Shown here: piece by piece, positions 11,960 through 43,925 of the stretch
How the letters are laid out: every line of letters starts with the position of its first letter
Position numbering within the stretch: position 1 is the stretch's first letter
DNA from: Flaccisagitta enflata
Lineage: Eukaryota
Assembly (NCBI GenBank): GCA_965153355.1
Contig: OZ231126.1
Location: 43,028,001 to 43,092,000 of the forward strand
Reading direction: 5' to 3'
DNA: 64,000 nucleotides
Notes under the pieces: model-generated
Told to the model about the DNA's origin: nothing
What the model saw: the letters and a program-made list of their open reading frames with translations, nothing else
Databases searched by the model: none
Translations under genes and position numbers: made by a program

Positions 11960-11969
11960 NNNNNNNNNN
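11960..11969. other. Assembly gap (10 N)
   Basis: Run of N; a family-A repeat is truncated at its left edge. Confidence 1.
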
Positions 11970-17029: not shown

Positions 17030-21671
<4,642 letters not shown>

Positions 21672-21751: not shown

Positions 21752-22052
21752 CCGTTTCTTTCTGTTTACACAGTTGGAGAAAACAACAAAAAGGGGAAGA
21801 ATTAATGCGTTCGTCAGATGCTATCATTTGTAACATACGGTTCAAAAAAAAAATTTCACGTTAAAATTGTAAAAGCAAAAATTAGGACTTAAAGTTCCTA
21901 ATTTCTGTTTTCCTTTCAAGTTTCACATTTTCAATTTTCAAATTTTTAGGTCCAGATTTAAAAACATAATTTGCTTTTAAAAACATTGGGTAAATCATTG
22001 GGATAAACATTGGGAAAAACATTTAAAAAGACATTGTGAAAATCCATTTGTC

Positions 22053-23514
22053 ATGGATGGGAGTGAAGAATATATGCAAAGCCCAGAGGATTTGGGCATG
22101 GAGATGGACGAAGAGGACAGGACGAAGAGGCCGAAGAGGCGTGCGAAATCCCAGTTCCTGATGACTGGCCCAGCAAATGGCCAATAGAATTGATCAACCA
22201 CCCGGTCGAGCTTGGAGATCGAATAATAACCGTGGCAAATCTTCCAACTCCACCAAAGGTTAGTTTTATGCCTCATTTGTGGTATGTCTGCCTGCCCGTT
22301 TGACTGTCTATCTGCCTTACCATTTCATGCATGCCTGTCTGTCTATCTGTCTGCCTACCCGTCTGCCTGCATGCCTGCATGCCTGCTTGCTTCTCTAACT
22401 GTCAAAGTGTGTGCATGCCTGCCTGTGTGCCTGTGTGCGTGTGTGCCTGTGTGCCTGTCTGCCTGTTTGTCTACATGTTTTCCTACCTGGGTGCCTACTT
22501 CTTTTTGCCTGCTTTGTTTACGCTTTTCCTTTACATTTGTTAAATGAGTTTTTTGTTTTTTATTTACATCTCAGATTACACATCTTGTCCTACATCAAAC
22601 TCAAATTGTGAAGCTTTTTGGGGACATCAACTACAGGGAATTCAAGGCTCGCTATTTAGAAAACGACGAACACTTCATATACTTTCGTCACTCGCGGTTA
22701 GTTACATGAATTAGAATGGCATAAATGGTACAATAAATAACGGACTAACAAAGCCTCTCATAAAGTTGTGTACTCAGAATTTTAAAAATACCTCCATCTG
22801 TTCATGTTTCCAGAGACATCCCTCTGGCTCAACTTCTCTCGGATGACCTCCTCTCTCATTTCCACATCATTAAAGTGATGCGCCTTGGAAACAAAACGAA
22901 AGAGGATTGGCGCTGTACTTTGAAAAAATGGGTCCAAGATCCGACGAAGGACCGAGACGTCGAGGATCTTCTTTCGACCATAACAGCCCTTGACGATAAA
23001 GATTTGGACCGCATTGCCCGCGCTTTGGTCCATCCGTGCGACTTTGTGTCGCAACCGTCGCCAATAACACAAGCACGGGTCATGCTTTTGGAATGACAGA
23101 AGGCCGCGACCGATTTGGCCAGGTATTTCATTTATGTAGAGTGATAAAAACACGTGTTAAACAATCTACATATTCACCAACCTACTATTTTATGTCTACA
23201 ATAATACTGCTAAAATTATCTCCCCATTTATTCTCCAGATGAAGGGTCAAGGCACTCGACTGGATAAGAAGCCACGCCCAGCCCCTCCTCTACTACATTG
23301 CATCAAAAACGCCATTGAGTTTCGTCCCCAAACCAGAGCGGAATGGCACTCTTGCCAAGATGTCCTCATCAATACGCCAACAAAAATCGGCAACAGCGCC
23401 ACCAAATCATCCTCTCCGACGTTGATCCTGAACAATGGAGAATCTTTACAGGCGCCGAAATCTCTTGAATTTGGAGGTACGTTTGTTTGTTTGTTTGTCT
23501 TTTATTTTCATTGT

Positions 23515-23582
<68 letters not shown>

Positions 23583-23634
23583 AGTACAAGAACTAGGTAT
23601 AGGCTATAATTTTTTGATGGAAATTTCTTTCTTC

Positions 23635-23670
<36 letters not shown>

Positions 23671-23673
23671 TTT

Positions 23674-23733
<60 letters not shown>

Positions 23734-23749
23734 TCCTTCTTTCTTTCTG

Positions 23750-23816
<67 letters not shown>

Positions 23817-24903
23817 AATTATCATAGTAACACATTTAAACTTCTTTTTTTTTTCACAGACGAAACCGTCTCCTATGTCCTTGATCAAGCCGAAAAAAAG
23901 AGACACATCAACAATCAACTGATGTTGTTTCTTATCAATCATCACAACCCGGATTCAGCATGCCACTTCTTCAGTCTACTGTCAAGCAGTGACAAATGGA
24001 ATCTGTTCACTGTCTTAGGTAAATATCCCATTTTTACTTGCAAATATGCAACTCTATAAGAGGCTGTCCGTCTGGGCCCGTCTATTGATTAGTCAGTCCG
24101 CAGATGACCAATTTATGGCACAAACGCACATTCCCTCTCTGCCCTGCTGCCTGCCCTGCCCTCTCACCTCCCATGCCCTCCCCATGCCCTGTTATCCTGC
24201 CATGCCCTGCCTTCTGCCCAGGCCAAACACTCATATTGCCATTTCATTACCATTGCTCAGGTGCCAGTTGGATGTCCATGACTCGAAATCTCGTGGATAT
24301 TTATCAAGAACAGAAACTTGCCGCTGACAATCTCAAATCATGGTCCTACAAAAACTTCAAGAGGTATAAATTGTATTTCCATGATAAATAAACCACTCAT
24401 CTGTATCGTGCTATGTCAATCGGTCCGTTGGTCGGTCTCTGTTTTTGAATCCAAATGGGCTTTGCATTAGTGTCCCTACCAACCATCCAAATCTGGTTTG
24501 CCATGTACCTGGCATTGTTTACTTCCCATTTTTTTTTGTCATTTCAATTATTAGGCATAAACACATCATCGAGGCCAACGACAAGGCCAAAAGGGCGCAC
24601 AAGCGCGATTGGGAAAGGAACAGAGAAGCCGGGCGAGTCCGGGGCAACTACGAACCGCTGCAAACCACTTTCGACTTGGCGGTTCGTTGGTTGGCCAACT
24701 TCTTGCGGAAACATCATTTCGATATCAAGAAATTTCTACGTTTCGTCCACAACTTCCTCGACTTCTCAGGAGTGAATAACGACCCATCATTGGCCAAGCG
24801 TAACTGCGCGTTCTTCTATGGGAGTTCCAATTCTGGGGTATGAAAAACAAACAAACAAACAAACAAACATAAAACAAACAAACAAATACATGATGTAGAA
24901 ATA

Positions 24904-24955
<52 letters not shown>

Positions 24956-26404
24956 ACGAAAGAAAGAACAAAGAAAAAAGGCAAAATAGAAGAGCTAAAA
25001 CCTAAGTACACGTTCATAATTATTTTTTTCCCTGATTTTTTTTCTTTCATTCCAACCCATCCATATCACTGCCCCTGCCCATCCATTTCCCTATAGAAAA
25101 GCTTCCTCAGCAAATGTCTCCTTGAGAGCATTTATCTTTGTTATCCAAATCATGAAAGGTGAGTTATTGATCAATCAAATCTTCACATATTCTCAAATTG
25201 AAGTACCCTCCCCTGCCCATTGTGCCGTACCCACCCCGGCCCATCATGTCGTTAATCCCAGATCACTATACAAATTTTTTTTTCTTCTTCTTATTTTCAG
25301 CGTTAACTTTTTCCTTGAGCGACTGGACGAACTGTGTCATATCGTCTTTGCCGAGGTTAGTTTATTGCTTTTCTTTTTTTTTTACTATTAGCTCTTAGCC
25401 TTAGCCTTAGCCTTAGCCTTAGCCTTAGCCTTAGCCTTAACCTTTAGCTGTTACTCATGCTTTATGCTTCTGCTTATGCTTTCAAATCTTATGCTACGGA
25501 CAGACTCACAGCCCTAACAACCAACATGGTAAAATATACAGTCGCATGTCCGTAATCAAAAATCATTACTACCATTGCCCATGCCCATGTAATTATAAAT
25601 GTAACCCCGCGTCCCTTCCCTTAGGAGCTCAAGACGGGTTTTTTGCCGATTTCTTCGCTCAAGCTCATGTTTGAAGGTTCTCCCACGGTAATAAACAAAA
25701 AAGGGAAATCGGCGTCGATGAGAACCACCCCCTACCGCATTTGGGTGACATCCAATGACTAATTAAGTTCCTACGTGCCCTCAGGGGACCAAAGAAACCT
25801 CAACGCTATGCGTTCAAGGTAATTATTTCATAATATGCACAATAGAAGTTACGTCACACATTCAGACGGACGGATGGACAAATTAAACGGATGGCACTTA
25901 TATGCATTTCATATACAATCTCCCTTACTCATTGACCTGTACCAAATGTCACCCAGCATTACTTTACAGATGTTTCGAGTTCCAAATGTCTACCCCCGTG
26001 GTCACGGAAACTATGGAGCAAATCGAGGCCGCGACCCCTCAACAAATTGCACGGCTCAAGACAAAATACGAAATACCCCCAAACCGGCCTTTCAGGTAAT
26101 TATTTTAGGCTACACGGCTCCTGAAGTCGCATGTGGTGGGCAGGGACAGCGATAAAAGAGGCAAACCGTTCATAACATCAATTACATCTAAAGCTTACCG
26201 ATGGACCAACCAACCAACGGACATAGCAGGTTGTAGAGTCGCGTGCATGCGACCAAAAAGAGCTCTTTTCTGCATCATTTGTTATCAATTTAAGCGCCCC
26301 CCCCCTATCCTTTCCTCTTATACAGCTACATTTTGCCAGCGCCAATCGTAATCACCCCTGCCCACTGGGTCGGGCGTTTTGCTTCGTCACTTCAATTTAA
26401 ATGA
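22053..26404 (+). pseudogene. Parvovirus NS1/Rep-like protein (possible HUH domain plus SF3 helicase), 12 exons
   Basis: Exons 22053-22258, 22575-22696, 22814-23122, 23239-23476, 23860-24018, 24261-24363, 24555-24837, 25097-25158, 25301-25355, 25625-25818, 25970-26095, 26326-26404, all GT-AG. The spliced protein has KRNCAFFYGSSNSG/KS (Walker A), IVFAE/E (Walker B), KLMFEGSPTVINKKGK (B'), IWVTSN (C) and AMRSR/CFEF (Arg finger). HFHII lies at 22857. Lesions: frameshifts in exons 1 and 3, TAA at 25760-25762. Confidence 0.8.
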
Positions 26405-26920
26405 CTGTCCTGATCCTGGCATTCCCTGGCAAGACACGATCCAGGATCTGCCCTGAAATCAAATCCCGTAACCCCGGGCGACACACAGTCAAAAATTGAC
26501 TTATTGGGCACTGTTTTAGCTTCTTCATGGTTATCCCTGGACAAGATAACTTTTGCATCTTCCAAGCTTGACATTGTCTGAATTGCAGTCCCTCAACGAC
26601 TCATTAGTTACTTTATTCATCCATTTCCTTTGTTCTTTTGTCGTTGGCCCAAATACACAATCTTTTGTCATTGGCCCAAAATGTGTCATTGTCATTTATT
26701 TTGCTTTGCTCGTTCATATTATTGTCACGATCGCTTTACCTAATTTCAATAAATAAAATAAATATCAATAAATAGATTTAAATTAACAGAGTTTTTCATT
26801 CAACTGATCATAACTGTACATGTGGATGTTTGACAAAAACTCATCAGTGCTACCACTGCACTTTATGAAATACTCATTTTTATAGCTATTGAATACGTGA
26901 CAGTTTGCTGACTGAGGTCA

Positions 26921-29900
26921 TTACTGATACATTTCAAGAAACTCCAATCTCACAGGAAAATCAAGACCATTAGACATGTAATTAATGCAGCACGTACGTT
27001 GTTTAAACATATCACCATTAACTAACGTATACAAATACTCTTTTTCGTGTTCCAGACACACACCCAAAGCGATAAAAAACTTTTTTTTCCATTTAAAATA
27101 CCTATTAGCTTCCTCTGTATTCATAGTTACTTTTAAATGGTGATCTAGCAATACACTAGTTAATGTACTAGAACATAGTGTTTCTGGGGTGAAAGCTCGG
27201 TTAAACATAGTTAAAAAACCATCGGTGTTAAAACGTACTGCTTCTCCAAGAAAATAAAAATTCCACGTCAAAAAAAAGTTCATAAATATCGAGATTCCAT
27301 TTGATATTATGGCCATATGCAATTGTTTAAGGTTACAAATTCTCGATGAACTTGCAAAATGGAAAAGTCTTTTCTCTGCATTGACCTGAGTGCCATGAGA
27401 GAGATTATGCAGATCCTGTATGCTTTTTATATCGTTTTCATTCATTAGATAGCTATTTTTATGCTTGTGTCCAGATATGCCAAACGCTCCAATAGCAGAA
27501 TTCAAACTTCCTTTGAGTATTTGAATAAACCCAGTGCATTGCTTATAATTCTTAAAAGCGTTAAACACTGGCGCCTCCAGTGTATGAAAGGGGTTTAATG
27601 CTGAGACGCGGTATTCAATGATTTCAGTGATAGCAGTAATTGAGAAATCACTGGTTAAACCATTGGTTAGCATTTCCCTCAAAATCAGAGTTGAGACAAT
27701 TTTGTCCTCCACGTCATAACTAGTCTGTGAAATACCATCTTTTTTGTAAAAAAAAGGTTTCAAAACACCTAAGTTATGCCTTGTTTTGTCTCCTGCAACT
27801 GTGGTGCATTTCACAAAGCCATTCAAATCTCCATGTTTGATTGCAGTTATCACTTTATCATGAGTCAATGCTCCATATCTTAGCATAGGGAAATTTTGCA
27901 TGGTTATCTGCTCCACAAGTGTTGATAACTGTATATCACGACAGTCGAATTTACATGGCAGTTTTAGACTGTCCATAAATGCTCCAGTACTTTTATGCCA
28001 AAAACGCAGCACGTGGCATTCGGATACGCTTACAATTCTTTTTCCGCTTCTTTTATACATAAGTGCCGCCTTTTCTAACGTGTTTTTGTAATCCTCATCA
28101 TAGGTAACGTTTTTCTTCAGAGCGTGGACCGAATCTCTTTGTTCATTTGTTTTCATTTTCCAGAGTCGAGGCTTTAAGAATTTCAAGTGGGCGCTGCCAT
28201 CGCCAACCATTTCCTCAGTTTTGCATGCGTCACAGTGCAGTTTGTGACCTTTCATCACATTAGCTTCACTCGAATGGCATATTTTTGGGCAACTATGCCA
28301 TATACACCCGTCGGCTTCATAGAACACCTCGTTCCCTTCGATTTTGAGAATAGCATCGAATAGCATCCCGTATCTCATTTTTTCTTGACCATTTAAGTGA
28401 GATATTGAAAACAGAGCGTCACAACAAAACTCTATAACGCCTAAAATCATGTTAGAAAATGTGTGACGCTTTCGACTCCGTTTTGTGACATATGTTGTTC
28501 CTTTTCTCACGTACATGTGCGGCAGTCCGACCAACATCCAATTAGCATTTTTTTTCAATACTAAATGGCCATAAAACTTCTCGAAATCCACATTCATTGC
28601 TCCTTTCATAAATCCTTGATCATGACAAATGCTTTTTTTGGCATTTAATACTCCGTATGAAACAAATGTTTCGTGTATTTCATGAGAAAAAGCCAAGGGC
28701 GGGGAAAACAGGGCGTTTCTCCTGCCTTCGTCTAATGTACTGGCCATCAAATGCCTACCGATCTGAGTTAAATTTCTTTGACCCACAATATTCAGTCCAA
28801 ATTCACTTTTGAACAAACTCACAGTATCCTTGAAATGTGCCAACATGTCTGGAGTCGCTCTATTCCCTTGAAATGTTGCTCCGAATTTATTTAACAGTAT
28901 AAAATTCAGAGGAAATTGGTCTACAGCGACAAATTGTAGCACATTTTGATCGAACTTGACATGTATGGTTTCACATTCTCGATCATTGCTGAGCTTTGAC
29001 AACAATTCAAACATAAAATTGCTCACTATTTTGGGGTCTTCCTGCCCAACTGACAGATAAATGTCATATTTGCTCAAATATTTGACAATTTCAGTTTTTA
29101 CCATCTGCAGATGCTTCAGTTTGCTCCTATCGATTGCTTCCGGGTCGCAGTTTTCATAACTGCTCAATGCTGTTTCTATTTTTTGTAGTGAGTCAAAGTG
29201 CAACACTAATCTTTCGCCTAACACCCATATGGCACATTTTGCTAAGAATTTTATGATGAATGAAGCACAGTCCCCTAAACTTTCAAATCTCCTTGACATC
29301 ATCATTTGATCAGTGCCTTTCAAATCAATCTGCATTGTCAAACTCACTGACGAGTCCTTTTCAACATTAATTAAGCAATGAGTGTACTTGGTATCCTTGC
29401 AAATGCTCAAATGTTCAAAATCAGCCGTTTCTGACACAATTTTTTCCGCGGAATAGGGAAAATTCACTTGCTTCTCGGCAACAAAGCGTTTTTTTTCGCA
29501 TACTTTGAACTTTTGATGATATTCTAACCATTGTATACGAGAAAAACACCTTGTGCACTTTGAACATACAAATTTTTGGGAATATTTCTGTAAATTTAGC
29601 ACTGTCTGCACGTGATTTTCATTTTTGGTTAACAGATAAATGAATTTCCCGTAGTCATTGTTTGACACATTCTTTGAAGAGAAGTATCTTTGATATTTTG
29701 TAGTTTTTAATACTGTGTCATTGGCAACCTTTCTCATATTCATGGTTTTTTCACTTAGCAAAATTATGGAATGACCTAAGAATTTTTCCAATTCGCCTAA
29801 GTATCTTTCTGGTAATCCCAAATGACCAATTTTCTCTGAAAGAATGTCCTTTTCCTTTCCTCTTTTTTTCAGCCATGCCAAAAACTTTTTCTTTAACTTT

Positions 29901-30682
29901 TTTGCTCTTTGTCTGTGAACTCTTGTTCTTTGCCCTTGTCCTTTTCCTTTCCCCATTTCTGAACTCCTCCTTTTTGCATTTCCACATTTGTCCACGTCAA
30001 AAATACTGCTTAATGCAAGCCACACACATGCATTGCTGTCACAACTACCATCGGTACATTTATGCTCACTTAAACATCTTCCATTGTTGCCAAATATCTT
30101 GGAGGGCACACTTGTTAGATGAAATGTCAGTGAAAGCGGGGCCAAAAAGCTGTCACTATATTTACTGCTTAAACTCGATAAACTTGCTAACATGGCTTGA
30201 TGTAAATCCTCATTTTTGAGAATGACATCAATGAAATGGTTAAATGATTGAATGTCATGTATGAGATAGGATTGGCCTAAAATCCCACAATTACTGCGGG
30301 AAGCCCAAATGAAGTTACTAGGCCCTCCAGTAGTTGAGATAATCGCCATGTTTGGACTAAACTGAATTCTTACTGATCTCCTTAATCTGACATAATAGTG
30401 GTATAAAACCCCTCTCACAAATTCTATGAGGTAGTTTGACACATGGAGGGGGGACGGCCACCAGTTACGGACATGGGCATCACTTAGCGGTCGATTACTT
30501 GCCAGACGAAAATTAAATTCGCTCACCATCATGTTGGGATTAACTGTGATCTGATTTCTTACAGTGTTCCAGTTGGCTTCAACAACTCTTCTTAATTCAT
30601 CACAATAGTCATTTCCAGCGACAGTACTGTCCAAATCCCTAACTATTGCATTGTTTATTTCAGCATAACTTAGACCACTCAT
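26921..30682 (-). CDS. Divergent protein-primed family-B DNA polymerase (Polinton type), 1253 aa
   Basis: N-terminal CVWLAL block and C2H2-like CSKC..F...LEYH...C; insert FDAIL..FYEADGCIWHSCPKIC; motif A-like VDFEKFYG (~28571-28591); motif B-like KGSLNSAIGAFG (~27488-27514); motif C-like FNTDG (~27219-27233). A probable C-terminal remnant with IKCSG continues past the stop toward ~26760. Confidence 0.8.
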   Translation of the reverse strand: MSGLSYAEINNAIVRDLDSTVAGNDYCDELRRVVEANWNTVRNQITVNPNMMVSEFNFRLASNRPLSDAHVRNWWPSPLHVSNYLIEFVRGVLYHYYVRLRRSVRIQFSPNMAIISTTGGPSNFIWASRSNCGILGQSYLIHDIQSFNHFIDVILKNEDLHQAMLASLSSLSSKYSDSFLAPLSLTFHLTSVPSKIFGNNGRCLSEHKCTDGSCDSNACVWLALSSIFDVDKCGNAKRRSSEMGKGKGQGQRTRVHRQRAKKLKKKFLAWLKKRGKEKDILSEKIGHLGLPERYLGELEKFLGHSIILLSEKTMNMRKVANDTVLKTTKYQRYFSSKNVSNNDYGKFIYLLTKNENHVQTVLNLQKYSQKFVCSKCTRCFSRIQWLEYHQKFKVCEKKRFVAEKQVNFPYSAEKIVSETADFEHLSICKDTKYTHCLINVEKDSSVSLTMQIDLKGTDQMMMSRRFESLGDCASFIIKFLAKCAIWVLGERLVLHFDSLQKIETALSSYENCDPEAIDRSKLKHLQMVKTEIVKYLSKYDIYLSVGQEDPKIVSNFMFELLSKLSNDRECETIHVKFDQNVLQFVAVDQFPLNFILLNKFGATFQGNRATPDMLAHFKDTVSLFKSEFGLNIVGQRNLTQIGRHLMASTLDEGRRNALFSPPLAFSHEIHETFVSYGVLNAKKSICHDQGFMKGAMNVDFEKFYGHLVLKKNANWMLVGLPHMYVRKGTTYVTKRSRKRHTFSNMILGVIEFCCDALFSISHLNGQEKMRYGMLFDAILKIEGNEVFYEADGCIWHSCPKICHSSEANVMKGHKLHCDACKTEEMVGDGSAHLKFLKPRLWKMKTNEQRDSVHALKKNVTYDEDYKNTLEKAALMYKRSGKRIVSVSECHVLRFWHKSTGAFMDSLKLPCKFDCRDIQLSTLVEQITMQNFPMLRYGALTHDKVITAIKHGDLNGFVKCTTVAGDKTRHNLGVLKPFFYKKDGISQTSYDVEDKIVSTLILREMLTNGLTSDFSITAITEIIEYRVSALNPFHTLEAPVFNAFKNYKQCTGFIQILKGSLNSAIGAFGISGHKHKNSYLMNENDIKSIQDLHNLSHGTQVNAEKRLFHFASSSRICNLKQLHMAIISNGISIFMNFFLTWNFYFLGEAVRFNTDGFLTMFNRAFTPETLCSSTLTSVLLDHHLKVTMNTEEANRYFKWKKKFFIALGVCLEHEKEYLYTLVNGDMFKQRTCCINYMSNGLDFPVRLEFLEMYQ

Positions 30683-31181
30683 TGTTGGTGTTGAGTTCGG
30701 CCTCTCACTTTAAGTTTATCTGGAAACGTCACTCTCCGCATTCGAGGCAGTGGTGCCACGCTGACACTATTTCCACTCCTACATTTTCCAATTCCATGCA
30801 ACGCAAAGGACAAGAGCAGGTGATTGCCGCAGTTTCTGTACCACTGATAAATGTCTTTTAAATGTGTGACCATTTTTTTTGTAATTTTCTATAACAAATA
30901 GTTAATTAATAACATTCATTATTCAGCTAAAATCACGATCCATAGCATAATCATTTTTTTTTACTAATTTTCATTATGCAAAACTAATGTAAAACACTGT
31001 ATTTTAAGTGCGGTGCAGCATGACAGGGCGCAGTAGTTGATGATTTAAACTGATGATATGGTCTCTGTCTTTTCATGGCAATAGTTATTATTCATAAATA
31101 ACCCTCAAATCATCGGAACTTTCTTCGTCTTTCGTACATAGAATTGTCGCCAAAAGATTTCCTATAGAGTAGAAAATCATT

Positions 31182-31628: not shown

Positions 31629-34526
31629 TCAATTAACAAGGATATTCCCAGATGCATCACATTGCACCAGTGATTTTTCGAAGGAAGCGATTTGAATAAT
31701 CTTGTTTGATAAGGCTAGATTTGAATCTTAGCCGAAAATCAATAGTTCCAGAGGAAATGAGATTCAAACCATCATCTGAATTCATCAAATGCCTCGGGGT
31801 GGATTCAAATGGGAAGCAAAACAAATATAACTCTTTTTGAAATTTCACTCTGGAAATACTGTCGACCGCTTTCGGGAAATTCCGAAGTAACTCACGGTAC
31901 CAATGGTCATTAGCCAATGACTTTTCATTTGACAGATCCATGTTGTTCAAGAAAGAGGGTTGAGGCACCAATTGGCCGTTTTTGAAGACCTCACTCTGTT
32001 GTAGGTCCTCGTGATGATACACAAAGCGATTTTGGAAATTCCCAAGGTATTTCTCCTGTATGATACAATCATTTATTCATTTCTATGAAAATATTTTTCA
32101 ATCAACAGTATTATGATACAATCATTTATTCATTTCTATGAAAATATTTTTCAATCAAAAGTATTAGAACAAGGTATTGGGCTTTAATTTCTATGAAAAT
32201 ATTTTTCAATCAAAAGTATTAGAACAAGGTATTGGGCTTAAATTTCTGTGAAAATATATCAAATTCAAACTATAACCTCACCTCATCAGAAAAGAAAATC
32301 ACCAGCAAGTCTGGGATACGCTGGAATGAGCACGCCGAGTTAAGGAAGTACAGAGACGATCCTTTCTGAAGTGTGTAATGCCTAAAAGTATGCAAACGTG
32401 TCAATACATGTCAGCAGTCAATCCCTCTATCTCACTGTCATACTTACAGGAACCATCAACACTACTTGTACTCTAACAACTGATCCGTTTGTGGTCAACC
32501 CTGTCTGTCCATCTATCAGCTTGTCCCTCTGTCAATTGGTCCATCCGTCTACTTGCATGCACATACCTAATGTGAGAGACAGGAATGACACGACGAATGC
32601 TCTCAGAATTTATTAAATCGTACCAACTGTAAAATTAATACAAAAATGCCATGAATCCACACTGTATCAATGAAAAAATATATAAAAATCCACCAAACAC
32701 ATATTTTTTTAGTCGCGTGTTACGCGACTCTACATCCCGCTTTGGAGGTCCGTTGGTCCGTTGATTCATCTATTCATTCACACTTTATTATTTTTTTTTA
32801 TTTTGGGATTTGGGCTATGCTCCTGCCAAAATGATCATGTGACCTCATTGCTCCTGCCTATCTACACGCATCTGGGGTAGCCACCACACTCACCTTGTCC
32901 GTACATTTGTTTCCAATTTGAAATATTGTAGAGCCACGCGAGCATTCAAAAGCGATAATTCAAAATTATCAGAATTTGTCGTGTTCTTTATCAAAATCTT
33001 TCTTTCACCGTGCATCTCCAGTGAGACCTCTTTAAATAAGCATTACAATTTAGGTGCGACAAAAGCATCTATGACTGGCCGTGTCGGTCGGTTGGTCAGT
33101 TGGTCGGTTGGTCGGTTGGCTAGATACATTGCACTGACCTACAATTCTTTTTTGAGGTACCAGAAATCCTAAATCGAAAAAACGGCTAAGCAGCCGCAAT
33201 GGAACACAAAATTCCATGCCCTCACTTTCAGCACATTTGCGAATCAATTTTGATCGCTCGTAAAGACCTGAAACGTTATAACATTAATTACTACATGTAA
33301 TTAACTTTTCCTACCCCTACCCCTACCCCCTAACCCTCTTTAATAAACACTCTCTCTCATCCCCCTCTCTCTCATTGGCTTTTTTTACCTTCGTTGAAAT
33401 TTTTTTTTTTTGAGTAAAGTAGCCTTTATTTGTGCGGCAGTTTGTTTTACCCCATCAGTGACGATGGCATCATAATCCTTCAGACCACAAAGTCCAGATC
33501 CCATTCCATCGATGAAAAAGAGATTGCAAAAACAGCGCCCGCCTAAAGTACATTTATTAGAGTCAATTAGCGTAACAAATCCTATATAACTTTACTGTTA
33601 CAATGTACAAAAATATGAATAATACCGAAATACCAAAATACTCATAAAATACCAGCAAGTACTTATAATGCATACATAACTGGCCTTTGTCTAGTTTATG
33701 AGTCAGTTGTTACTGAACCATGTTCGGTAAGCTATAGTAGATGACTCTGTCTGTCGTTCTTAAGCTTAGTGAACTCTGGCATGAGATTTAAAACAATAAA
33801 TGATCTGTTAGCATTGCCCCTAAACACCTGTACAAACAAAAATCATAATTATCTACCAACAAACATCTGTGATGGTTCAGCATGTACTTGGGCACAGTAC
33901 GAACATTGTGACAGGGTACGTAATGGCATGTAATGGATGCTGGGCACAGGCGATTGTATCGGGTATGCAACTAGATATCAAATGGGTACAGATATGGGTA
34001 TTTTGCACAGACATGGCATGTACTTTCAAAGGGTATATACAGGGTACGGGTATATAGCAATGCAACGTGGGCATTATAGATGTGGGCATGGGCATATACT
34101 ACCACACACTATACTTACTTCATCTCTCTCCAACACACCTAATACTTCAATAAAATAAGTAAGAAAGTTGACATAACTACTGGCCTGTACTTACACCTAA
34201 CACCTGCTTAAACATTAATATCAAATGTGACATTTTTGCCACAGTTCGGAGGGAACACTGGGAATTTAGCAACTGAAATATAAAAAGAAAACTATTGACC
34301 CATTTATCTGTCCTTACCAACCATCTACAACTGCATTATCATATCTCACATATCCCCCCCCCCTCTCAAATACCAATATTCATACCGTGGTAGCATTTTT
34401 CAACGTATTTGCTGGTGCCACATCAATAATTGATCCACTCTGTATGCCCGCAAAGGAATCCGGGATGATGGATAGCTTACATATATCCAAAATTTGAATA
34501 GTTGAATCTGACACTAAAGTTTCCAT
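31629..34526 (-). pseudogene. Polinton-type double-jelly-roll major capsid protein, about 9 exons, with frameshifts
   Basis: Exons 34526-34386, 34272-~34200, 33827-~33680, 33542-33389, 33267-33139, 33029-32894, 32626-32567, 32381-32282, 32055-31629. The last five join in phase at GT-AG sites. Peptides GLYERSKLI, QRIPDLLVIFF, YLGNFQNRFVYHH..FKNGQLVP, YLFCFPF, LISSGTIDFRLRF and (after a frameshift) IIQIASFEKSLVQCDASGNILVN* follow the Polinton MCP pattern. Exons 2-4 are degenerate. Confidence 0.8.
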
Positions 34527-34764: not shown

Positions 34765-35382
34765 TTAAACACATGCCCATAAAGCGCTATGAATTTGTAT
34801 TTTGTTTGTTCCTCTTTGTGTAGATGAATATAGGTTGTTCTCAACTTTGTAAGCTCCTTCAGAAACTTTTTTGCGCAACGTTGCCCCAATTCTCCTCTGA
34901 AGATATTTATTGCAAGGCAGCGAGAATGTTATGGTGATGAATTCCTGAATGAAACACCTGCTGACACCAAACGAATGCCCGTTTGAAATGGCCTCATCCA
35001 CGTACGTTTCAAACATCAATGACGTCACCGTGTCCTGTTTTCCATAATTCCTTTCAGCTTGGTTGTTGCTCAACGCAACTAGTTCGCCAAGTCTTTCGCT
35101 AAACAACGACATCCCCATGCACAAATCGCTAAGTTTCGCGTCGATCGCATCCAAACGCTGTTCCAGAGAAACTGGCATCCCTTCATCGCTGTCAGTTTCA
35201 CTTTCAACATCGCACCCACTTGCTTCAGCCTCCTCTCCTCCCCCACTAGCCACAATCTCCTGATCAACATTTCTCCCCTCCATCACTTTTCCACAATCCA
35301 TGCCATCGATAAACTCTTCATCGCTTCTCGATTCATCCATTTTTTCACTGCAAATGTCAACGTTTCCAGTTCCAAACCACAA
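34765..35382 (-). CDS. Acidic/coiled-coil protein with a C-terminal linker-histone (H15)-like winged helix
   Basis: YVDEAISNGHSFGVSRCFIQEFI..RIGATLRKKVSEG resembles the H1/H5 globular pattern (EAI..GSSR..I..YI..ALK..V..G). Confidence 0.5.
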   Translation of the reverse strand: MWFGTGNVDICSEKMDESRSDEEFIDGMDCGKVMEGRNVDQEIVASGGGEEAEASGCDVESETDSDEGMPVSLEQRLDAIDAKLSDLCMGMSLFSERLGELVALSNNQAERNYGKQDTVTSLMFETYVDEAISNGHSFGVSRCFIQEFITITFSLPCNKYLQRRIGATLRKKVSEGAYKVENNLYSSTQRGTNKIQIHSALWACV

Positions 35383-35482
35383 TTTTCAATATCAATCTGA
35401 GACAAATATACAACACATCAAATTTATTTCATTCACATGTAAATCTTTCCTTAATCATCTTAACATCTTAACATCTTATGTC

Positions 35483-36028
35483 TCAATAGTAGTGGTTCAC
35501 AAATCGCTTTCGCAACATTTGTTTCTTCTTTCTACGCACAGCCTTCATACTTTCACTAGGCTTTTTCATTGCATAACAAAATCCACAATGTTCTTTCTCA
35601 CATCTCCCAACGCAGGACTGCTTGAATAACGATATCTCCATGACAACGCCATCCTCGGGTCCAACGCAAACGCGTACCGCCTTCGCATTGTTCTTCATAC
35701 TCGCGTTCCGCTCTTCCGTTCTTCGGTCCACGGGCACCGCGTCCTCGCCCTCATTTCTTCGTTTCATTCCCCTTGTCACCTGCCTTGATGATGGCGATGG
35801 CTTTGGCGATGGCGATGGCTCCTCCGGTTTCTCGTCGAAATAGCATCTTGGCATCTTCCCATTCAACAGTTCCTCTAAGGTAACCAACTCGCATTGGTCG
35901 TAGTACTTTTGAAGATTCTTCGTCACAACGCTGACTTTAACCAAATCGCATCCATCATAACATTGATAGCGCCTACATTGCAAAATAGGCACTGGTTGTG
36001 GCCTCATATCAATGCCCGGGCATGACAT
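35483..36028 (-). CDS. Hypothetical Cys-containing basic protein
   Basis: 181-aa ORF with CRRYQCYDGC and CVGRCEKEHCGFC clusters and a basic tail; co-oriented with neighbouring genes. Confidence 0.45.
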   Translation of the reverse strand: MSCPGIDMRPQPVPILQCRRYQCYDGCDLVKVSVVTKNLQKYYDQCELVTLEELLNGKMPRCYFDEKPEEPSPSPKPSPSSRQVTRGMKRRNEGEDAVPVDRRTEERNASMKNNAKAVRVCVGPEDGVVMEISLFKQSCVGRCEKEHCGFCYAMKKPSESMKAVRRKKKQMLRKRFVNHYY

Positions 36029-36137
36029 AGTTCAATGTTCATTGTTCAATGTTCAAGGTTCAATTTTGTCCGTGTTACCTGCACAAATATGATATTTCAA
36101 TTCATTAATAACACGCTGTATACAATGCCAAACTAAA

Positions 36138-37006
36138 TCAATCAATGACAATGATATCGCCATCGTCATTATTTCCTTCTTTTCCTTTCTGTTCATTTGT
36201 CTTTTTCTTTTGATCTTTTTTTGGCAGGCATTTCGCATAGCCATTTATCATTTTCTCCCAGTCTCTTACACTTTTGTCCCAATCTTCTTGTGATGCATAA
36301 ACGTTTTTATCTACTGATGCCAACACTTTATCGAGATCGTCAAGAGATATGCTTTCCCACTTAACTCCATCCTGAACATTTTCATTGTTTTCGTCATTCA
36401 TTTGCCCTTGCTTGTCATTCATCCTTTTTCATCATTTGACGCTCCCATCTCGCTATTCGACGCTCATTCTATCGCCTCTTCTTCAGCCGCCACCACGCGC
36501 TCCATTCTCTGCTTTGCCGTTCTCATTCGCGCTTCCTTCGCTGCCTCGCTGCTTGTCTTTCTGCTGCTTCGTCGTCCTGCTCACTGCTCTGCTGCTTTGT
36601 CGTTTTCGCCACTCATTTCGCTCGTCGCTTGCTGCTTAGTGGATTCAGACATTCGCTGTTTCTTTTTTGCCGCTTCACATTCTTTGTCATCAAGTTTTCT
36701 TTTCTTCATCTCTTCTCTTTTTTCGCGCAGTTTCTCTTGCTTCACCAAATACTCCTTCCAATGCGTTGGTGGAACTGTTGGTTCTATGTTATGATAACAT
36801 CTTAAGTTACTTTGACGCTTTCTAGAATTCAAATTGTATCTTTTTATTTCCTCTTCTTTAAAACCATTTACACGCTGAAACAACTGTCTTACTAATTCAT
36901 GTCCATCCTCTTAATTCAACATATATCCCTCAGCATAAAGTTCCATAAGACGGAATAGAGGTGTAGACCGACTACATATCGGGGCATGATTGTGCTCTCT
37001 ACCCAT
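36138..37006 (-). pseudogene. Fragmented charged hypothetical gene
   Basis: ORF pieces 36581-36883 and 36138-36422 have coding-like composition and are separated by stops or frameshifts. Confidence 0.35.
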
Positions 37007-37113
37007 AGTTACTTTCTACACCTAATAACCAAGTAATTTACAGTTTCATGCATTCATATACAAATATGTATATTCATATACAAATATAAACAGAGTGTCA
37101 TCATTCACGAGTG

Positions 37114-37599
37114 TCATGATTCCTTTGTTTCAGTATCTTCCAACATTGATGATCCACTTGAACTCAAACTCGAATAAGAACTCAAACTTATATTTGAGCT
37201 TGAACTTGAGGAGCTACTAGAGGAGCTACTAGAGTCACTATCCCGTCTCTTTCTTTTTTTTTCAGTCTTTGGTTTTGGTGACTTTTTTCTTTTCTCCCTT
37301 TCTTTCCCCTTTTTCTTGTCAGACTTCTTGTCCTTTTTCTCGACGCTTCTTCCTGTCTTCTTTCTTTCCACTTTCTGTTTTTTTTCGGTTGTTTTTTTTC
37401 CACTTTTATCATCTTTTTTTTCATCTTTCTTTTTGGGTTTCCCTTTGGCTGATCTTTTCTTTCCCTTCTTCATGTTTTTAACGTCTTCATTATATGTTTT
37501 CACGGCCGTTTTATTTTCCACACTTGTAGATATTTCTTCCCGTTCCTCACCACGCATTCTCTTCTTAATTACTTCCAGCGCAGTACCCGTAATACTCAT
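37114..37599 (-). CDS. Lysine-rich protein with a poly-Ser tail
   Basis: 161-aa ORF starting 8 nt after the penton stop; very K-rich with varied codons. Confidence 0.5.
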   Translation of the reverse strand: MSITGTALEVIKKRMRGEEREEISTSVENKTAVKTYNEDVKNMKKGKKRSAKGKPKKKDEKKDDKSGKKTTEKKQKVERKKTGRSVEKKDKKSDKKKGKEREKRKKSPKPKTEKKRKRRDSDSSSSSSSSSSSSSNISLSSYSSLSSSGSSMLEDTETKES

Positions 37600-37606
37600 T
37601 TTAACC

Positions 37607-38732
37607 CTACAATTTTTTACAAATAACCAAATTGAATGAAATAGGACATTTTTTCACACAAACACCCAATTCATAAGGCTCAAACAAATTATTATACAAG
37701 CAAAACTGCATTTCGCGAATGACTATATTATTCAAGCGCTTTAAATTGTACAAAACGACTTTTTTTTCAATATCGTATGAGCAAAGAATTGAATGCATAT
37801 TTCCATCTACAAAAAATGTAGGCTCAATAAGTTTCTTGAATCCAATATGACATATTCTGTCTTCATCGGCAACAAAATGTACAATATCACTTATATTGAA
37901 ACAATTCATAAATTTTCAATAAATTATCACTCTCTTTCATGACTTCCGCCTCGGTTTTCCCACTACTGGTAAATGTGCGCATCACTTCACTTCTAAATCC
38001 TAAAGCCAACAACAAATGAACACTAGCAAAAAACATGAATCCAGCAGCCATTTTCATCTGTACTCTACCATCTACATACTTTAAACAAAACATATTCTCC
38101 ACAGGAACAACGGAGTTTGTCGCACTCATTTTTTGTCGTAGTGAATATTTTACAAAATTTGGATCTACTTTATTTACATTTCCATTGTCTTTTCTTTTTA
38201 CAGGTGGAGGACCAGTTATCACCACTGGACTCTCGGCAACGTCTGTATTTCCATCTATCACCACTGTACCCTCGGCAACGTCCGCATTCCCGTCCGAATC
38301 CGCGCCTGCATTCTCGTTCACATTCTCATCGACTGGATTCTCAATGGTCGCATTCTCTTCGGTGGCACTGGTATTCAAAGGTACATCGTTGCTTCCCTAA
38401 TTGACATTCTCTATGCAGCCGGTCTTTGTTATGAAATTGTTGTAAACAAGAGTGTTAACTTGATGGCATAAATCGTTCAGAGACACATACTTAATTTCAT
38501 ATTCATGAGTATCTTCCCTTTTCAGAAACTTGGTATCATACCCAAAGTTCATGAAGAAATTCAGTTTTTTCACTTTTTCAGGCATAACCAATTGTTCCAT
38601 CTTCACAAATGTTTTTTCTTTCTCGTTAACATTTAAGTTTAGTCCATTCATATTTACATGAAATGAAGACTTCTCACGCACATAACATCCCCTGTCTTTC
38701 GTCGTCACTCTTATCACTTTCAAGGTCTCCAT
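37607..38732 (-). pseudogene. Minor capsid protein (penton), with in-frame stop and frameshift
   Basis: N-terminal SSFHVNMNGLNL..TFVKMEQLVMP and C-terminal LIEPTFFVDGNMHSIL..IREMQFCLYNNLFEPY..PISFNLVI resemble Polinton penton ends. TAG at 38397-38399 is in frame with ORF 37887-38378, and there is a frameshift near 37900. Confidence 0.6.
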
Positions 38733-38744
38733 ATCTCTTTCTCT

Positions 38745-39116
38745 TCAAACCATATTCCTCAGGGCAACGTTTCTTTCATTTATTTCCACAGGCCGCCCTC
38801 CTGTCAGTCGCACAGTTCCAATGCGCATATCAACTTCAAATCTTCTACCCCATCTCAGTCGGGCAGATGCAGCCAACTTCGCAAAAATGAAGACAGCTAC
38901 CATCAGCAAGGCCAACATCACGAAAAAACCATCCATCACTATCGCCAAAGGTTCAATCCATTTCAGTTCCAATTCAATCTCAGGTGCCACAGTCGTCCAA
39001 TCATATGTCGTTGATCGATTACTTTCTCCATTCACAGTGGTAACCCAGCTACTTAGAGTAGTGTTGGGCTCATCCCATACAGGCCCAACAGACCACTTCC
39101 CTGTAGTAGCATTCAT
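38745..39116 (-). CDS. Small single-pass membrane protein
   Basis: Thr-rich N-terminus with NAT/NTT/NRS sequons, then hydrophobic FFVMLALLMVAVFIFA. Packed between the integrase and penton genes. Confidence 0.55.
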   Translation of the reverse strand: MNATTGKWSVGPVWDEPNTTLSSWVTTVNGESNRSTTYDWTTVAPEIELELKWIEPLAIVMDGFFVMLALLMVAVFIFAKLAASARLRWGRRFEVDMRIGTVRLTGGRPVEINERNVALRNMV

Positions 39117-39202
39117 TGTAATCTGTACACAATTAAACCGTACTAATCAAAGGCATGTTTTGAAGCATAGAAAACATTATCAAAATTTTTCAATTTAAAA
39201 TA

Positions 39203-40319
39203 TTAATAATCCCAAATTTTTTTTTTTTCAAGTGGCTCTGCAAGACAATTAAGATAACTAGCTTTGGCAAAAGATAACTCATTAAACACCTTCAACTCAT
39301 AAAAGGAGAATTTCGAATCAGACACAGGCTGTAACGAAAACACTGATCCAAGGGTAAAGAAAAAAATATGATCATGCTCATGTCTTTCCAAAACAATGTA
39401 AAACTGTGATGAAAAGGTGAATAGCTTTCCTTGTACCCCAAACCTTCTTTAGGCTTGTATTTTTGAATTTTCACAATAGAAAACAGTACAATATTTTTAG
39501 GATTTTTCATATGTTCCTTTAAAAACTTTCTACTTACAAAGCGCCGATCATATTTTAGCATTTGTACATATTTTGGCGACTGCGATAACATATCAACGCT
39601 ACTGTGCCCTTTAAAAACAGCTCTTGCCTTTTTGTTCATTCTATTTTCAATGGCTAACAATTTTTCTGCCCATGTCAACTTCACCATTTCATCATTGAAT
39701 TGAAGTTTTTCGAGGTACGATCTCAGAGACCTATTCATGACCTCTGCAAAATTTGCACCATACTACCTTCGTCCAATCTTTTAGGTGGGATGGGATTCAA
39801 ACTAATACCATGAGAAGAAAAAAAAGCACGCGATTTTTTAGCGAGATACTCAATACCCATATCAACACTCAAACGTTCACAATGCTCTGGTAAATAAGGA
39901 CTACGCAAAAAAACAGATTTGAATGCAGAAATCAAATCATCAGCTTTAGTTGATTTTAATGGAGCTAAATAACAAAATAAACTCAAACTGTCAACAATTA
40001 GTACCACGTATTTGGTACTATCTTTCCCATAATCACGACTCTTACTTAAATGTAAAACATCTGAAAATACCCAAGAAAAGAACTTTGGGGCTAAAACCAT
40101 CGCCCGAGATATTTCCTTTTTTTTCCGTTCAGAATCATTTCTAATAAGGATGCCATTAGACCGTTCTTCTTGCAAATATTGGTCTATTTCCTTTTCATCA
40201 ATATCAAATCCTCTTGATTCAAAAAACTTCTTGATTTCAGTTTTGTTTTTTGAAAGAAACAATGGAGAACTTTTATCACGTAAACCAGAATCCAATAATT
40301 GTCGTACTTTTGATCTCAT
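39203..40319 (-). pseudogene. Retroviral-like (rve, DDE) integrase, frameshifted
   Basis: VFSDV..KYVVLIVDSLS..LAPLKSTK..LSVDMGIEY, then after a frameshift near 39750 FAEVMNRSLRSYL. The C-terminal part (FFFTLG..KFSFYELK) lies in a third frame. Confidence 0.85.
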
Positions 40320-41554
40320 TTTTTCTTTTTCCTTCTTCCTTTCGCGGGTTCATCCACAACCCCTGTAGACCAAGCTTCCTCAATTTTTGATACGAGCCTC
40401 GGACTCCTAAAAACAAAAACAGGAACAAAGTGGGCAGGGGCGTAAATGCGCGTTTTCATACTTCCAGACTCGATCACACGGAACGGTGCACCGGCCGACG
40501 GACCAATGGACCGACGGACGGACAAGACCCCTTATAAAGTCGCTTATCCGTTACTAGAAGGCAACCAATCAACAGTCAGACATGTATACAAACACATGAC
40601 CTAAAAACAAGCTTACATACAAGCATATAGGCAGACAATCAGGCAAACAGTCATTTAACATTCCCGTGTCATACTCCCATTACCATACCTCCTCAGATTG
40701 GACAAATCCGATTCTGGAACGTTAAACCGTCTCTTCGCCGGTGCCAATTCCTCTTCACTAGAAGACGCCACCTTTCTCTTCCTCCCTCTTCTATTACCGT
40801 CTCCTATCTCCGCGTCAATACCCTCTCTTGGTAATTCAACGGATACACCTTCGCTACCAACGCCGCTGTCAGCCACTCCGCTTCCAGCGCCACTTTCAAT
40901 TGTTGCTTCCCCTCCACCGCTGTCAGCCTCCGCACCTCCGTCGGTATTAGGTAACGATGGCCTCATAGAATTACTATCTTGTTCATGCAAAGCGCGCACT
41001 CTCAATAAATCCTCTTTGATAATTTGAGCGTCCCCACTCCTCAGAGATGCTATTGAGGCTTTTATTTGCATTAAAGCTTCAATAAAAATTGTGCAGCCAA
41101 TTGGGATTTGCGCTGCGTTTGACGTCACACAAAATGAAATCAAATTTTTTATGTTTGAGAACTTTATCACTTCAGATTGCACTATGATCTCAAAAGTATT
41201 TTTGTCATAGTCAATTAAGTTACTTCGATTTATTTCATCCAAAATTGTTTCACCAAGTTGACGCTCTTTATTCCCACTTAATCCGCTCAAAACAGCATCA
41301 GATTCGTTGCTAGGAGCCAATGGCACATTACCATTATTGTTAGAATTCAATGGTGCATTTCCATTGGGGGCATTGTTGCTGTTTGTCTGACTACTTCCTG
41401 TTGCACTTTGTCCACTTTTCAAAAGGGATAATTTTTTCCCCTCAACAAGGCCTTTAATCTTCTCAATCTTTTCCTCACATGAAGTCCCTTCCTCGTCTAG
41501 AACCGACTTCAAAAAAGGAGATTTCACATAACTAGTGGGATTAGTAGAACTCAT
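40316..41554 (-). CDS. Conserved Polinton-type accessory protein next to the integrase, 2 exons
   Basis: Core ILDEINRSNLIDYD..EIIVQSEVIKFSNIKNLI..PIGCTIFIEAL resembles a recurrent Polinton ORF. A GT-AG intron at 40688-40407 restores LRRSPRL...RRKKKK*, whose stop overlaps the integrase ATG. Confidence 0.6.
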
Positions 41555-41567
41555 TTTTTTTCGCCCA

Positions 41568-41897
41568 TCAATCACATTCTAAACAGTTGTTTATAAAATC
41601 ATACAAAATATGATTGTAAAACAATTTTTGCTCCTTTTTTGAACACCGTAAGAATCTCTTTTTTCGTTTTTTTAAAGAAATTTTTTTACTTTTTAAGAAT
41701 TTCAAAAGTTTTATGTTTTTGGCAATGTATTTCAAAGTTTTTGATGAGAAACAATGCTTCAGCTTTGATTTCATGCAATTTTTCACAATTTCAATTATGC
41801 AAACGAAAACGTTGGTCTTCAAATCCTTAGTAAACAAGGAGTCAGTGACACAAGCATCTAAGAATGATCTTAAATGCTTTTTTTTCCGACACGCCAT
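41568..41897 (-). CDS. Small basic Polinton-type protein
   Basis: CIIEIVKNC..LKYIAKNIKLLKFLKSKKISLKKRKK resembles a small basic ORF I recall downstream of Polinton ATPases. It starts 12 nt after the ATPase stop. Confidence 0.6.
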   Translation of the reverse strand: MACRKKKHLRSFLDACVTDSLFTKDLKTNVFVCIIEIVKNCMKSKLKHCFSSKTLKYIAKNIKLLKFLKSKKISLKKRKKRFLRCSKKEQKLFYNHILYDFINNCLECD

Positions 41898-41908
41898 AGA
41901 TTGACTGC

Positions 41909-42979: not shown

Positions 42980-43925
42980 CACTATGAATAAAAATTGTAA
43001 AATCATGCTTATATATATATATGCTTTTCCTCTTCCTCTTCCGCCTCCTTATATTTCTTTTCTATCTTTCTTTTCCTCCATTTCTCTTCCTCTTCCTATT
43101 AACTTTCATATATTTTTTTTTTATTTCCTGTTCCTCTTCCTCTTCCTCTTCCTCACTCCTCTTCCTCCTCCATTTTTTTTCATGTCATGTTTTCTGTCTT
43201 TCTATGTCTGTCTTTCTATCTCTGTTATCTTTTCGCTCTTTCTATCTCTGTCTTTCTATCTATGTTGTTCTATCTCATGATCAAACTAACCTGTATTGTC
43301 TATCTTTCATCTTAGCCGTCAACTGACTATAGAACCATTAGGTAACTAACCGTATTTTGCACCATATAAATGTTACCAAAAATGCTCAAACCAAAATCTT
43401 CAAATTTACCAATACTATAAATGTACCTTACTATGTCCCTTTAATCTTCCTACCTTTCATATCACATTTACTATGCCATTTTGTATTTCAAAACTTCATT
43501 TTGCCTTTACAATTCTCTTTAAAAAAGTTTCAATCAAAACAACCTTTAAAGTAACAATAAAAAACCTTTTCAGGCATTATAATTTACCCAATTTCTCATA
43601 CAACAACCAAAAACGTACCTTCAATACACCTAAAATGGACTACCAAAAACCTGAAAGGGTATACCAAAATACCTGAGAAGAACCTCAAAAACCTTAAACC
43701 TGCCATTCCAATATACTTATACATCCATATATCAAAATTTACTTTTTCAATAAGCCTTTCAAGATTTTTTAACCATTCCTTATATCTGTGCATCTCCTCC
43801 TCAACCCTTTCCTCTTTATTTTCCTTAACTCAGCCGTTCCTAATTTCTCAGCTCTATACCAAGTACTTCTCCTTTTCATCTAAGAAGAAACAAAAGGCCA
43901 ATGTCAGAAAGTACACGAACTAGAT

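Follow-up and report, generated by a model that had tools for sequence, protein, structure and literature searches.

We analysed a 64,000-nt stretch of Flaccisagitta enflata DNA (contig OZ231126.1, positions 43,028,001 to 43,092,000; the whole stretch is called the window here and is numbered from its first letter), in which a helicase gene on the plus strand lies tail to tail with a polymerase-like gene on the minus strand. The helicase gene is genuine and spliced, with at least ten GT-AG exons, and the last ~150 residues of its predicted product hold what reads as the full series of motifs of a replicative helicase of superfamily 3 (SF3; viral AAA+), of the type found in small DNA viruses. 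In the window, this gene is either a pseudogene or in decay, and the small helicase family to which it belongs is otherwise known only from marine-metagenome contigs, as fragments of about exon size. We infer, tentatively and with a little less than even confidence, that helicase and polymerase travel together in one integrated virus-like element; a viral origin of the helicase and a function in the replication of the element are likewise proposed.

The gene model was built by eye from three-frame translations, and the exons were then joined by script. It comprises ten exons on the plus strand (22575-26099) separated by nine introns, each 117-383 nt long with canonical GT..AG ends and a pyrimidine-rich acceptor, and its coding sequence (CDS) amounts to 1611 nt in frame, or 536 codons, with the stop TAA at 26097-26099. 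The exons and the uncertain part that precedes them are as follows:

22053-22257, plus strand: uncertain 5' coding part, ending at the donor AAG/GTTAGT (22257/22258)
22575-22696, plus strand: exon 1, with a phase 0 start and the donor GTTAGT
22814-23078, plus strand: exon 2, containing the motif HFHII and ending at a weak donor, GTCATG
23239-23476, plus strand: exon 3, Pro/Ser/Thr-rich and linker-like, with a weak coding signal and all three frames open
23860-24018, plus strand: exon 4
24261-24363, plus strand: exon 5, in which the relative P0001 is identical at 22 of 28 residues
24555-24837, plus strand: exon 6, with a helical region and the first half of Walker A (ending in KRNCAFFYGSSNSG)
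25097-25158, plus strand: exon 7, beginning with KS, which completes the Walker A core GSSNSGKS
25301-25355, plus strand: exon 8, ending with the IVFAE of Walker B
25625-25818, plus strand: exon 9, with the second Glu of Walker B, motif B', motif C, an in-frame TAA, and the AMRS of the Arg box
25970-26099, plus strand: exon 10, completing the split Arg codon, continuing with CFEF and ending at the stop

Because the junctions were chosen so as to keep the frame, the in-frame model alone is not independent proof of splicing. Database fragments bear out three of the splice junctions and include one relative without one of the introns. P0001, which is 66% identical in exon 6, carries exon 5, then a diverged intron, and then exon 6. 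In the alignment, five of the six database relatives diverge directly after SSNSG/V, where the GT donor ends exon 6, and the sixth (P0007) ends at that V. P0017 runs from the end of exon 6 through a 33-residue in-frame intron at the same junction, and then reads exons 7 and 8 uninterrupted to the next donor. P0013 has an extra break inside exon 6, at a different place; together with the lack of the exon 7/8 intron in P0017, this indicates that intron presence and position vary between helicase lineages, as judged from P0013, P0014, and P0017 against exons 6-8 of the window. The phase-consistent GT-AG splicing that a preliminary description of this locus had worked out by hand is thus upheld, since the nine introns join in frame and junctions are supported by P0001 and P0017, whereas its count of twelve exons was not reproduced: ten were verified, plus the uncertain 5' exon.

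Codon-usage scores favour the model frames in exons 1, 2, 4, and 6 and are ambiguous for exon 3, and an alternative strong donor for exon 2 at 23122 would require a frameshift. At the 5' end, the frame opened by the ATG at 22053 differs from that of the exon ending at the donor 22257, and the latter frame has no ATG; by codon score, the ATG frame is the better one over 22053-22150, whereas over 22067-22257 the other frame has a weak advantage. This mismatch reflects either a frameshift in the window copy or a further 5' exon or start further upstream. Three tandem 12-nt units (AAACATTGGGxA) are located just upstream of this ATG (21980-22016). They were considered as a shared promoter motif and rejected, as the unit is not enriched in the window (14 matches vs. 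17.6 expected).

The motifs of an SF3 helicase, which the preliminary description had listed in order from Walker A to the Arg box, can all be read directly in the model. Walker A (GSSNSGKS, aa 385-392), which fits the consensus GxxxxGK[ST], is formed by KRNCAFFYGSSNSG and KS across the exon 6/7 junction (24796-24837 + 25097-25102), and Walker B (IVFAE/E, aa 425-430, 25341-25355 + 25625-25627), a hydrophobic strand with two acidic residues at its end, lies 39 residues after K391, close to the ~40 expected. They are followed by the B' motif KLMFEGSPTVINKK (aa 442-455, 25661-25702), motif C with the sequence IWVTSN (aa 468-473, 25739-25756), and an Arg box AMRS/RCFEF (aa 490-498, 25805-25818 + 25970-25982). 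The distance from the Walker A Lys to the motif C Asn is 82 residues, and R492 and R494, the candidate Arg fingers, are 19-21 residues past N473, with the in-frame TAA in between in the window copy. The model contains this pattern of motif order and spacing once; it did not turn up in any of 20,000 shuffled versions of the model, nor when the window was translated contiguously in six frames.

The spacings resemble those of AAV2 Rep, where K340, N421, and R444 are 81 and 23 residues apart according to the available part of the source (PMC12713660). The portion available of a second source tabulates the motif forms of three parvoviruses, including the definitions of B' and motif C (PMC13308288). 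Set against this table, B' shares 4 identical and 5 similar positions with PPV5 as well as a common 14-residue K….G…..x.K layout, and the Glu-Glu end of Walker B and the T-S-N of motif C are common to the window helicase and the tabulated parvoviruses (PMC13308288). The likeness to parvovirus NS1/Rep is one at the motif level only, and the label "NS1-like" is used here as a hypothesis. The context of the P-loop, Lys-basic-Asn-Cys…Tyr-Gly-x-x-Asn-Ser/Thr-Gly-Lys-Ser, presumably fits papillomavirus E1 at least as well. In E1 and large T, the Asn-to-Arg distances are shorter.

Two codons after motif C and before the Arg box, the window copy has an in-frame TAA (25760-25762), which was overlooked in the splice model of the preliminary description. 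No intron can remove this stop, since no GT donor was seen from the end of the motif-C codons to the TAA, after which coding sequence resumes within ~30 nt.

The relatives of the helicase listed by our searches are ENA metagenome proteins, with one further cluster member, P0037, from another source. They are 39-97% identical to the window in exon 6, and one of them, P0012, is broken mid-exon. The ~97% variants differ from the window at 22 of 675 exon-coded residues vs. 31 of 254 intron-translated residues (rows that are not independent of one another), and the helicase exon is therefore constrained relative to the introns. All family and structure searches for the helicase used single exons or stop-to-X read-throughs as queries, that is, unaltered stretches of the window. 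Pfam searches (E ≤ 10) with exons 1-4 and 6-10, which are short fragments, gave no Parvo_NS1, Rep_N, or other family; for the exon-6 open reading frame (ORF) there was a non-significant match to PPV_E1_C (E 0.16), which was not repeated in the 4 relatives scanned. PDB sequence searches with the exons, including a 15-sequence profile, returned nothing meaningful, and IMG/VR scans with exon 6 and exon 9 returned no relatives. A structure model of exon 6 has four helices (pLDDT 77.1) and no match at E ≤ 0.001 in the Foldseek searches of PDB and BFVD. Several candidate matches of exon 6 were rejected: patatin clusters in the ESM Atlas, whose score of 0.88 is at chance level; generic helical hairpins in a VIA wide search with the exon-6 model, in which whole-model counts gave no chain at Z ≥ 5 and the best re-aligned Z was 5.0; and two chance matches of the exon-6 profile in a JGI metagenome scan, of which L001 is a high-GC, bacterial-looking contig.

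An active HUH nuclease in the helicase protein is not supported. The HFHII motif that the preliminary description placed far upstream does exist (22857-22871, in exon 2, with HFH at aa 56-58), but the Glu and Tyr that make up the context of an HUH nuclease are absent from the in-frame model. In parvoviruses, as far as given in the available part of the source, the Glu lies 8-9 residues before HUH and the catalytic Tyr 58-82 residues after it (PMC13308288). Positions −9 and −8 relative to HFH are Gln and Leu in the in-frame model, the nearest acidic residues being Asp at −5/−4, and no Tyr follows until aa 214, at a distance of 156-158 residues from the HFH histidines. Read in an alternative frame, exon 3 contains LLYYIASK, with two Tyr (23288-23293) that are ~86-101 residues after HFH; that frame requires two frameshifts, and its codon scores are worse overall. 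The origin-binding domain at the N-terminus of E1 and large T has the Rep fold but no catalytic residues, and the N-terminal half of the window protein may be a catalytically dead Rep-fold domain of this kind. Alternatively, the nuclease may plainly have been lost, as in bidnaviruses.

The gene that converges on the helicase gene is the following:

26783-30682, minus strand: pPolB-like gene, intronless, with its ATG at 30682 (open frame 26924-30709); a single frame runs collinear with relatives that are intact at 1299 aa

The window copy of this gene is 97.3% identical to P0026 down to 26786, except that a replaced stretch of ~12 codons contains two in-frame stops (26921-26923 and 26918-26920) and the last 46 residues are cut off. 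From the helicase stop, it is 684 bp to the ancestral stop of the polymerase (26783-26785) and 822 bp to the premature one, in place of the ~500 bp first estimated. With Atlas language-model features of residues 560-1262, 23 of the 30 nearest clusters were PF03175, the best with a score of 0.94 and 186 of 256 features shared, and the large intronless ORF plausibly encodes a protein-primed family B DNA polymerase (PolB). An assignment by language-model features is a lead and not a test. A profile scan of IMG/VR and the JGI metagenomes gave no relatives of the polymerase, and among its relatives from other searches P0030 is broken. At residues ~380-405 and ~795-830, the family has a C2H2-like zinc-finger stretch and a Cys/His-rich stretch (…DGCIWHSC…); we take the latter to resemble Vsr-type endonuclease motifs, and an Asp-Ser-Asn-x-Cys near residue 225 to resemble those of OTU proteases.

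Further features of the window bear on the extent of a possible element:

39295-40349, minus strand: two overlapping ORFs; a weak match to the rve integrase core is in the upstream ORF (39738-40349)
26108-26291, no strand assigned: dispersed repeat copy directly after the helicase stop, with at least 12 partial copies elsewhere in the window

The rve match (PF00665) has an E value of 6.9e-5 and 23.5 bits, under the curated cut-off of 32.6 bits, and is in an ORF split in two; PDB sequences gave this ORF only a chance match (E 1.2). Pfam found no significant match for 19 other window ORFs, and a candidate ATPase ORF had only AAA_14 at E 0.12 and no match among PDB sequences. The claim of a tail-to-tail Polinton polymerase stands in its geometry, and its PolB part is plausible, with 23 of 30 clusters being PF03175. 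Its "Polinton" label, in view of the lack of a Pfam match to the polymerase, the weak rve signal, and the lack of an identified capsid gene, is plausible but thinly supported by the sequence.

The ORFs at 34768-42592 are arranged back to back on the minus strand, some of them parted by a single in-frame TGA or TAG or overlapping by a frameshift; the weak rve match is the only Pfam match among them, and no capsid gene was recognised. An alternative genetic code was rejected as an explanation, as the in-frame stops of the neighbouring ORFs mix TGA, TAG, and TAA and a 1262-aa ORF is without any. Tandem direct repeats of ~90 nt occur in the putative element at 42640-42843 and 43905-44110, and a 51-nt copy at 32209-32259 is 90% identical to 42640-42689. 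On the plus strand, just upstream of the helicase gene, there are two long intronless ORFs (19626-20594 and 20757-21671), one of them acidic and the other weakly matching a C2H2 zinc finger (E 0.0038).

The window DNA is eukaryotic, with many microsatellites and the short dispersed repeat, which resembles a short interspersed element or a miniature inverted-repeat transposable element. Its copies are at 1343-1518, 5357-5421, 7415-7732, 24031-24100, 26108-26291, and 32676-32770, and further ones at 49540-49602, 51428-51526, 52459-52520, 54040-54107, 58187-58306, and 63623-63764. One copy is in intron 4 of the helicase gene, and a similar repeat occurs in the intron read-through of the relatives P0009 and P0010. 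An inverted match between the two genes (26197-26259) is part of this many-copy repeat and is not an element-specific terminal inverted repeat (TIR). No TIR or other boundary signal was found between helicase and polymerase, and no second copy of either gene elsewhere in the window, which has an assembly gap of ten N at 11960-11969. The region 21900-30800 is partly present in 20 of the 24 listed public runs, mostly labelled marine metagenome, and 9 of them contain at least half of the sampled words; 4 RNA runs contain 12-27% of these words, shares that do not indicate which part is transcribed.

Of the readings considered, we favour the one in which these genes belong to a Polinton/adintovirus-like element, with a PolB and a weak rve signal, to which a helicase of the Rep/NS1-E1-large-T type has been added. 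Where the helicase is intact, it would assemble into a ring ATPase and open or unwind the element DNA for the protein-primed polymerase, in parallel to bidnaviruses, in which an NS1-type helicase stands beside a PolB. Circumstantial support for linkage comes from the parallel histories of the two genes. Their identity ladders run side by side (97, 73, 68, 68, 66, and 65% for the helicase exon; 98, 73, 68, 67, and 58% for the polymerase), both have several ~97-99% variants and broken relatives, both window copies carry one or two lesions, and the polymerase relatives listed by the searches are likewise all ENA metagenome proteins, with no relative of either gene in IMG/VR or JGI metagenomes. 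The constraint on the helicase exon relative to its introns and the absence of a TIR or other boundary signal from the stretch between the genes also count in favour of linkage. That the locus represents a whole integrating Polinton/adintovirus-like family of a marine eukaryote, with PolB, integrase, and an intron-bearing SF3 helicase of the Rep/NS1-E1 type, is a broader proposal that we consider rather unlikely.

Several observations weigh against linkage within such an element, and some of them favour the rival view that the adjacency is due to chance, a Polinton-like element or its remnant having landed beside a host-resident helicase family that is either an old domesticated viral gene or its pseudogenised paralogue and that took on host-like introns; we regard this as a serious possibility, with perhaps a third of the probability. 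Parallel ladders are also expected from orthologous loci of related species. The helicase has at least nine introns in a CDS of 1.6 kb, with host-like microsatellites and the dispersed repeat in them, vs. none in the 3.9 kb of the polymerase, which suggests different histories, and the lineage-varying introns (one extra in P0013, one fewer in P0017) fit a long residence as a spliced gene. The exon constraint among close variants likewise speaks for a host gene. A copy of the dispersed repeat separates the two genes, and a self-comparison of the window revealed no TIRs enclosing both of them, only microsatellites and the dispersed short repeat; by Pfam, no capsid, penton, protease, or clear packaging ATPase was identified among the window ORFs. 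For the polymerase, neither the window copy nor its five relatives matched Pfam (6 of 6), the family profile met only zinc-finger chains among PDB sequences (E 0.2 or weaker), and the C-terminal 703 residues, modelled with 6 sequences, reached a pLDDT of only 31.4. For the helicase exons, no profile, PDB, Atlas, or fold search provides a tie to a known SF3 family, and the 9 proteins that an exon-6 profile picked out with HMMER from 1.84 billion representatives (E ≤ 0.001) are without exception short pieces of this one family, so that the helicase family is isolated in sequence and parvovirus NS1 stays a hypothesis. Among 8 window ORFs at 25.5-26.7 kb, none was present in a protein collection by exact look-up. 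However, introns do not exclude membership in an element, since the available part of PMC11957031 reports Maverick-Polinton-like proviruses of dinoflagellates with introners by the tens. Against chance adjacency, a premature stop here and a relative broken mid-exon (P0012) are not what one would expect if the helicase were a single host gene with an essential role. Its most conserved exon diverges (65-73%) as fast as the polymerase (58-73%), and the exon-6 profile found no relative among the same 1.84 billion representatives outside the one marine-metagenome family.

Two other explanations have to be considered beside linkage in a Polinton/adintovirus-like element and chance adjacency. The helicase might be a full parvovirus NS1/Rep, with active HUH and SF3 parts, inside a chimeric Polinton, the state proposed for the origin of bidnaviruses. 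The HFHII motif, the Glu-Glu Walker B, B', motif C, and the motif spacing recall parvovirus NS1/Rep, the tail-to-tail PolB recalls bidnaviruses, an integration of this kind was put forward by Krupovic and Koonin (available part of PMC4061559), and a Tyr-Tyr pair can be had ~86-101 residues past HFH. However, that pair costs two frameshifts in a frame of exon 3 that scores worse overall, and without it there is no Tyr for 156 residues after HFH, with Gln and Leu in place of Glu at −9/−8. Neither Parvo_NS1 nor Rep_N nor any other Pfam family matched exons 1-4 and 6-10. The P-loop context, as we take it, suits papillomavirus E1 no less, and a Tyr-less N-terminus also fits the non-catalytic Rep-fold domain that we take E1 and large T to have. 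We consider an intact NS1/Rep improbable. It is more improbable still, to the point of being only a marginal option, that the helicase has an element of its own, whether a mobile element or an endogenous small DNA virus so far undescribed, and that this unit is nested next to that of the polymerase. Such a unit would account for the multiple variants and the broken copy, for the viral-type motifs, and possibly for the upstream plus-strand ORFs (19626-20594 and 20757-21671); however, no repeats or termini delimit it, the introns speak against a recent insertion of a small virus, and the identities of the helicase relatives fall off in step with those of the polymerase relatives.

Among the known systems closest to the locus are Bidnaviridae, in which, according to the available parts of two sources, an NS1-type helicase without a rolling-circle endonuclease domain is combined with a Polinton-derived PolB (PMC4061559; PMC8502044), a combination ascribed to a hypothetical insertion of a parvovirus into a Polinton (PMC4061559). 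As in that family, an SF3 helicase gene adjoins a large, putative PolB of the protein-primed type, and the absence of the endonuclease domain from the bidnavirus helicase would be in keeping with a window helicase that lacks a catalytic Tyr. By contrast, the window locus is chromosomal, its helicase has at least nine introns, a weak integrase signal is nearby, and no parvovirus-like capsid gene is recognisable between or beside the two genes. If the linkage is true, the locus would be a chromosomal, integrase-associated pairing of a small-DNA-virus-type SF3 helicase with a protein-primed PolB, and its replication module would join protein priming to a helicase of small-DNA-virus kind. The locus might then be a present-day counterpart of the intermediate proposed by Krupovic and Koonin for bidnaviruses, a small DNA virus inside a Polinton, and a surviving lineage would make their scenario testable by the phylogeny of both genes. 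If the adjacency is due to chance, the result would be more ordinary, though still an SF3 helicase gene family that is new, rich in introns, restricted to one lineage, and probably descended from a virus.

In comparison with parvovirus NS1/Rep itself, the motifs from Walker A through B, B', and C to the putative Arg finger agree in sequence of occurrence and in distance, and the Glu-Glu of Walker B and the upstream His-hydrophobic-His are alike. The window protein differs in its Walker A (GSSNSGKS vs. GPA[ST]TGK[ST]), in the lack of a profile-level match with the exon queries, in the displaced nuclease Glu and Tyr, and in being encoded by a multi-exon gene.

With Polintons, Mavericks, and adintoviruses, the window shares a large intronless PolB-like ORF with PF03175-like features, the weak rve match, and the same-strand run of back-to-back ORFs at 34.7-42.6 kb, whereas it yielded neither TIRs nor an identifiable capsid or protease gene. 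The PolBs of alpha adintoviruses have strong BLASTP matches to those of bidnaviruses (available part of PMC8502044), while the window polymerase gave no Pfam PF03175 match. In the parts of two sources available, canonical Polintons and adintoviruses are described without an NS1/E1-type helicase beside PolB, and the helicase that replaces PolB in such elements is D5-like or virophage-like (PMC11071296; PMC8502044). In the literature that was searched and read, we did not find a Polinton with an NS1/E1-type helicase beside PolB described, a negative that supplementary genome maps may yet overturn. Related mixtures are on record in the available part of PMC11071296, namely a clam-associated example with a RepE1 and adintovirus-like virion proteins, and adomavirus-like chimeras that combine helicases of the E1/large-T type with adenovirus- or adintovirus-like virion genes. 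The window would be similar to adomaviruses in combining an SF3 replicase of the small-DNA-virus type with adintovirus-like genes; however, adomaviruses are episomal and have the helicase instead of PolB, whereas the window has both, with a spliced and chromosomal helicase gene.

The dinoflagellate Maverick-Polinton-like proviruses offer a parallel of a different kind, in that genes of an integrated virus-like element, as described in the available part of the source, contain many spliceosomal introns (PMC11957031). Unlike in those proviruses, the window introns are not copies of one repeat family and are confined to one gene, and in our judgement the splice sites and composition of the window are not dinoflagellate-like. 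If the linkage is true, a virus-derived replication gene would here have turned into a densely spliced one, and the locus would bear on the spread of introns in integrated viruses of the kind for which the available part of that source reports introners (PMC11957031).

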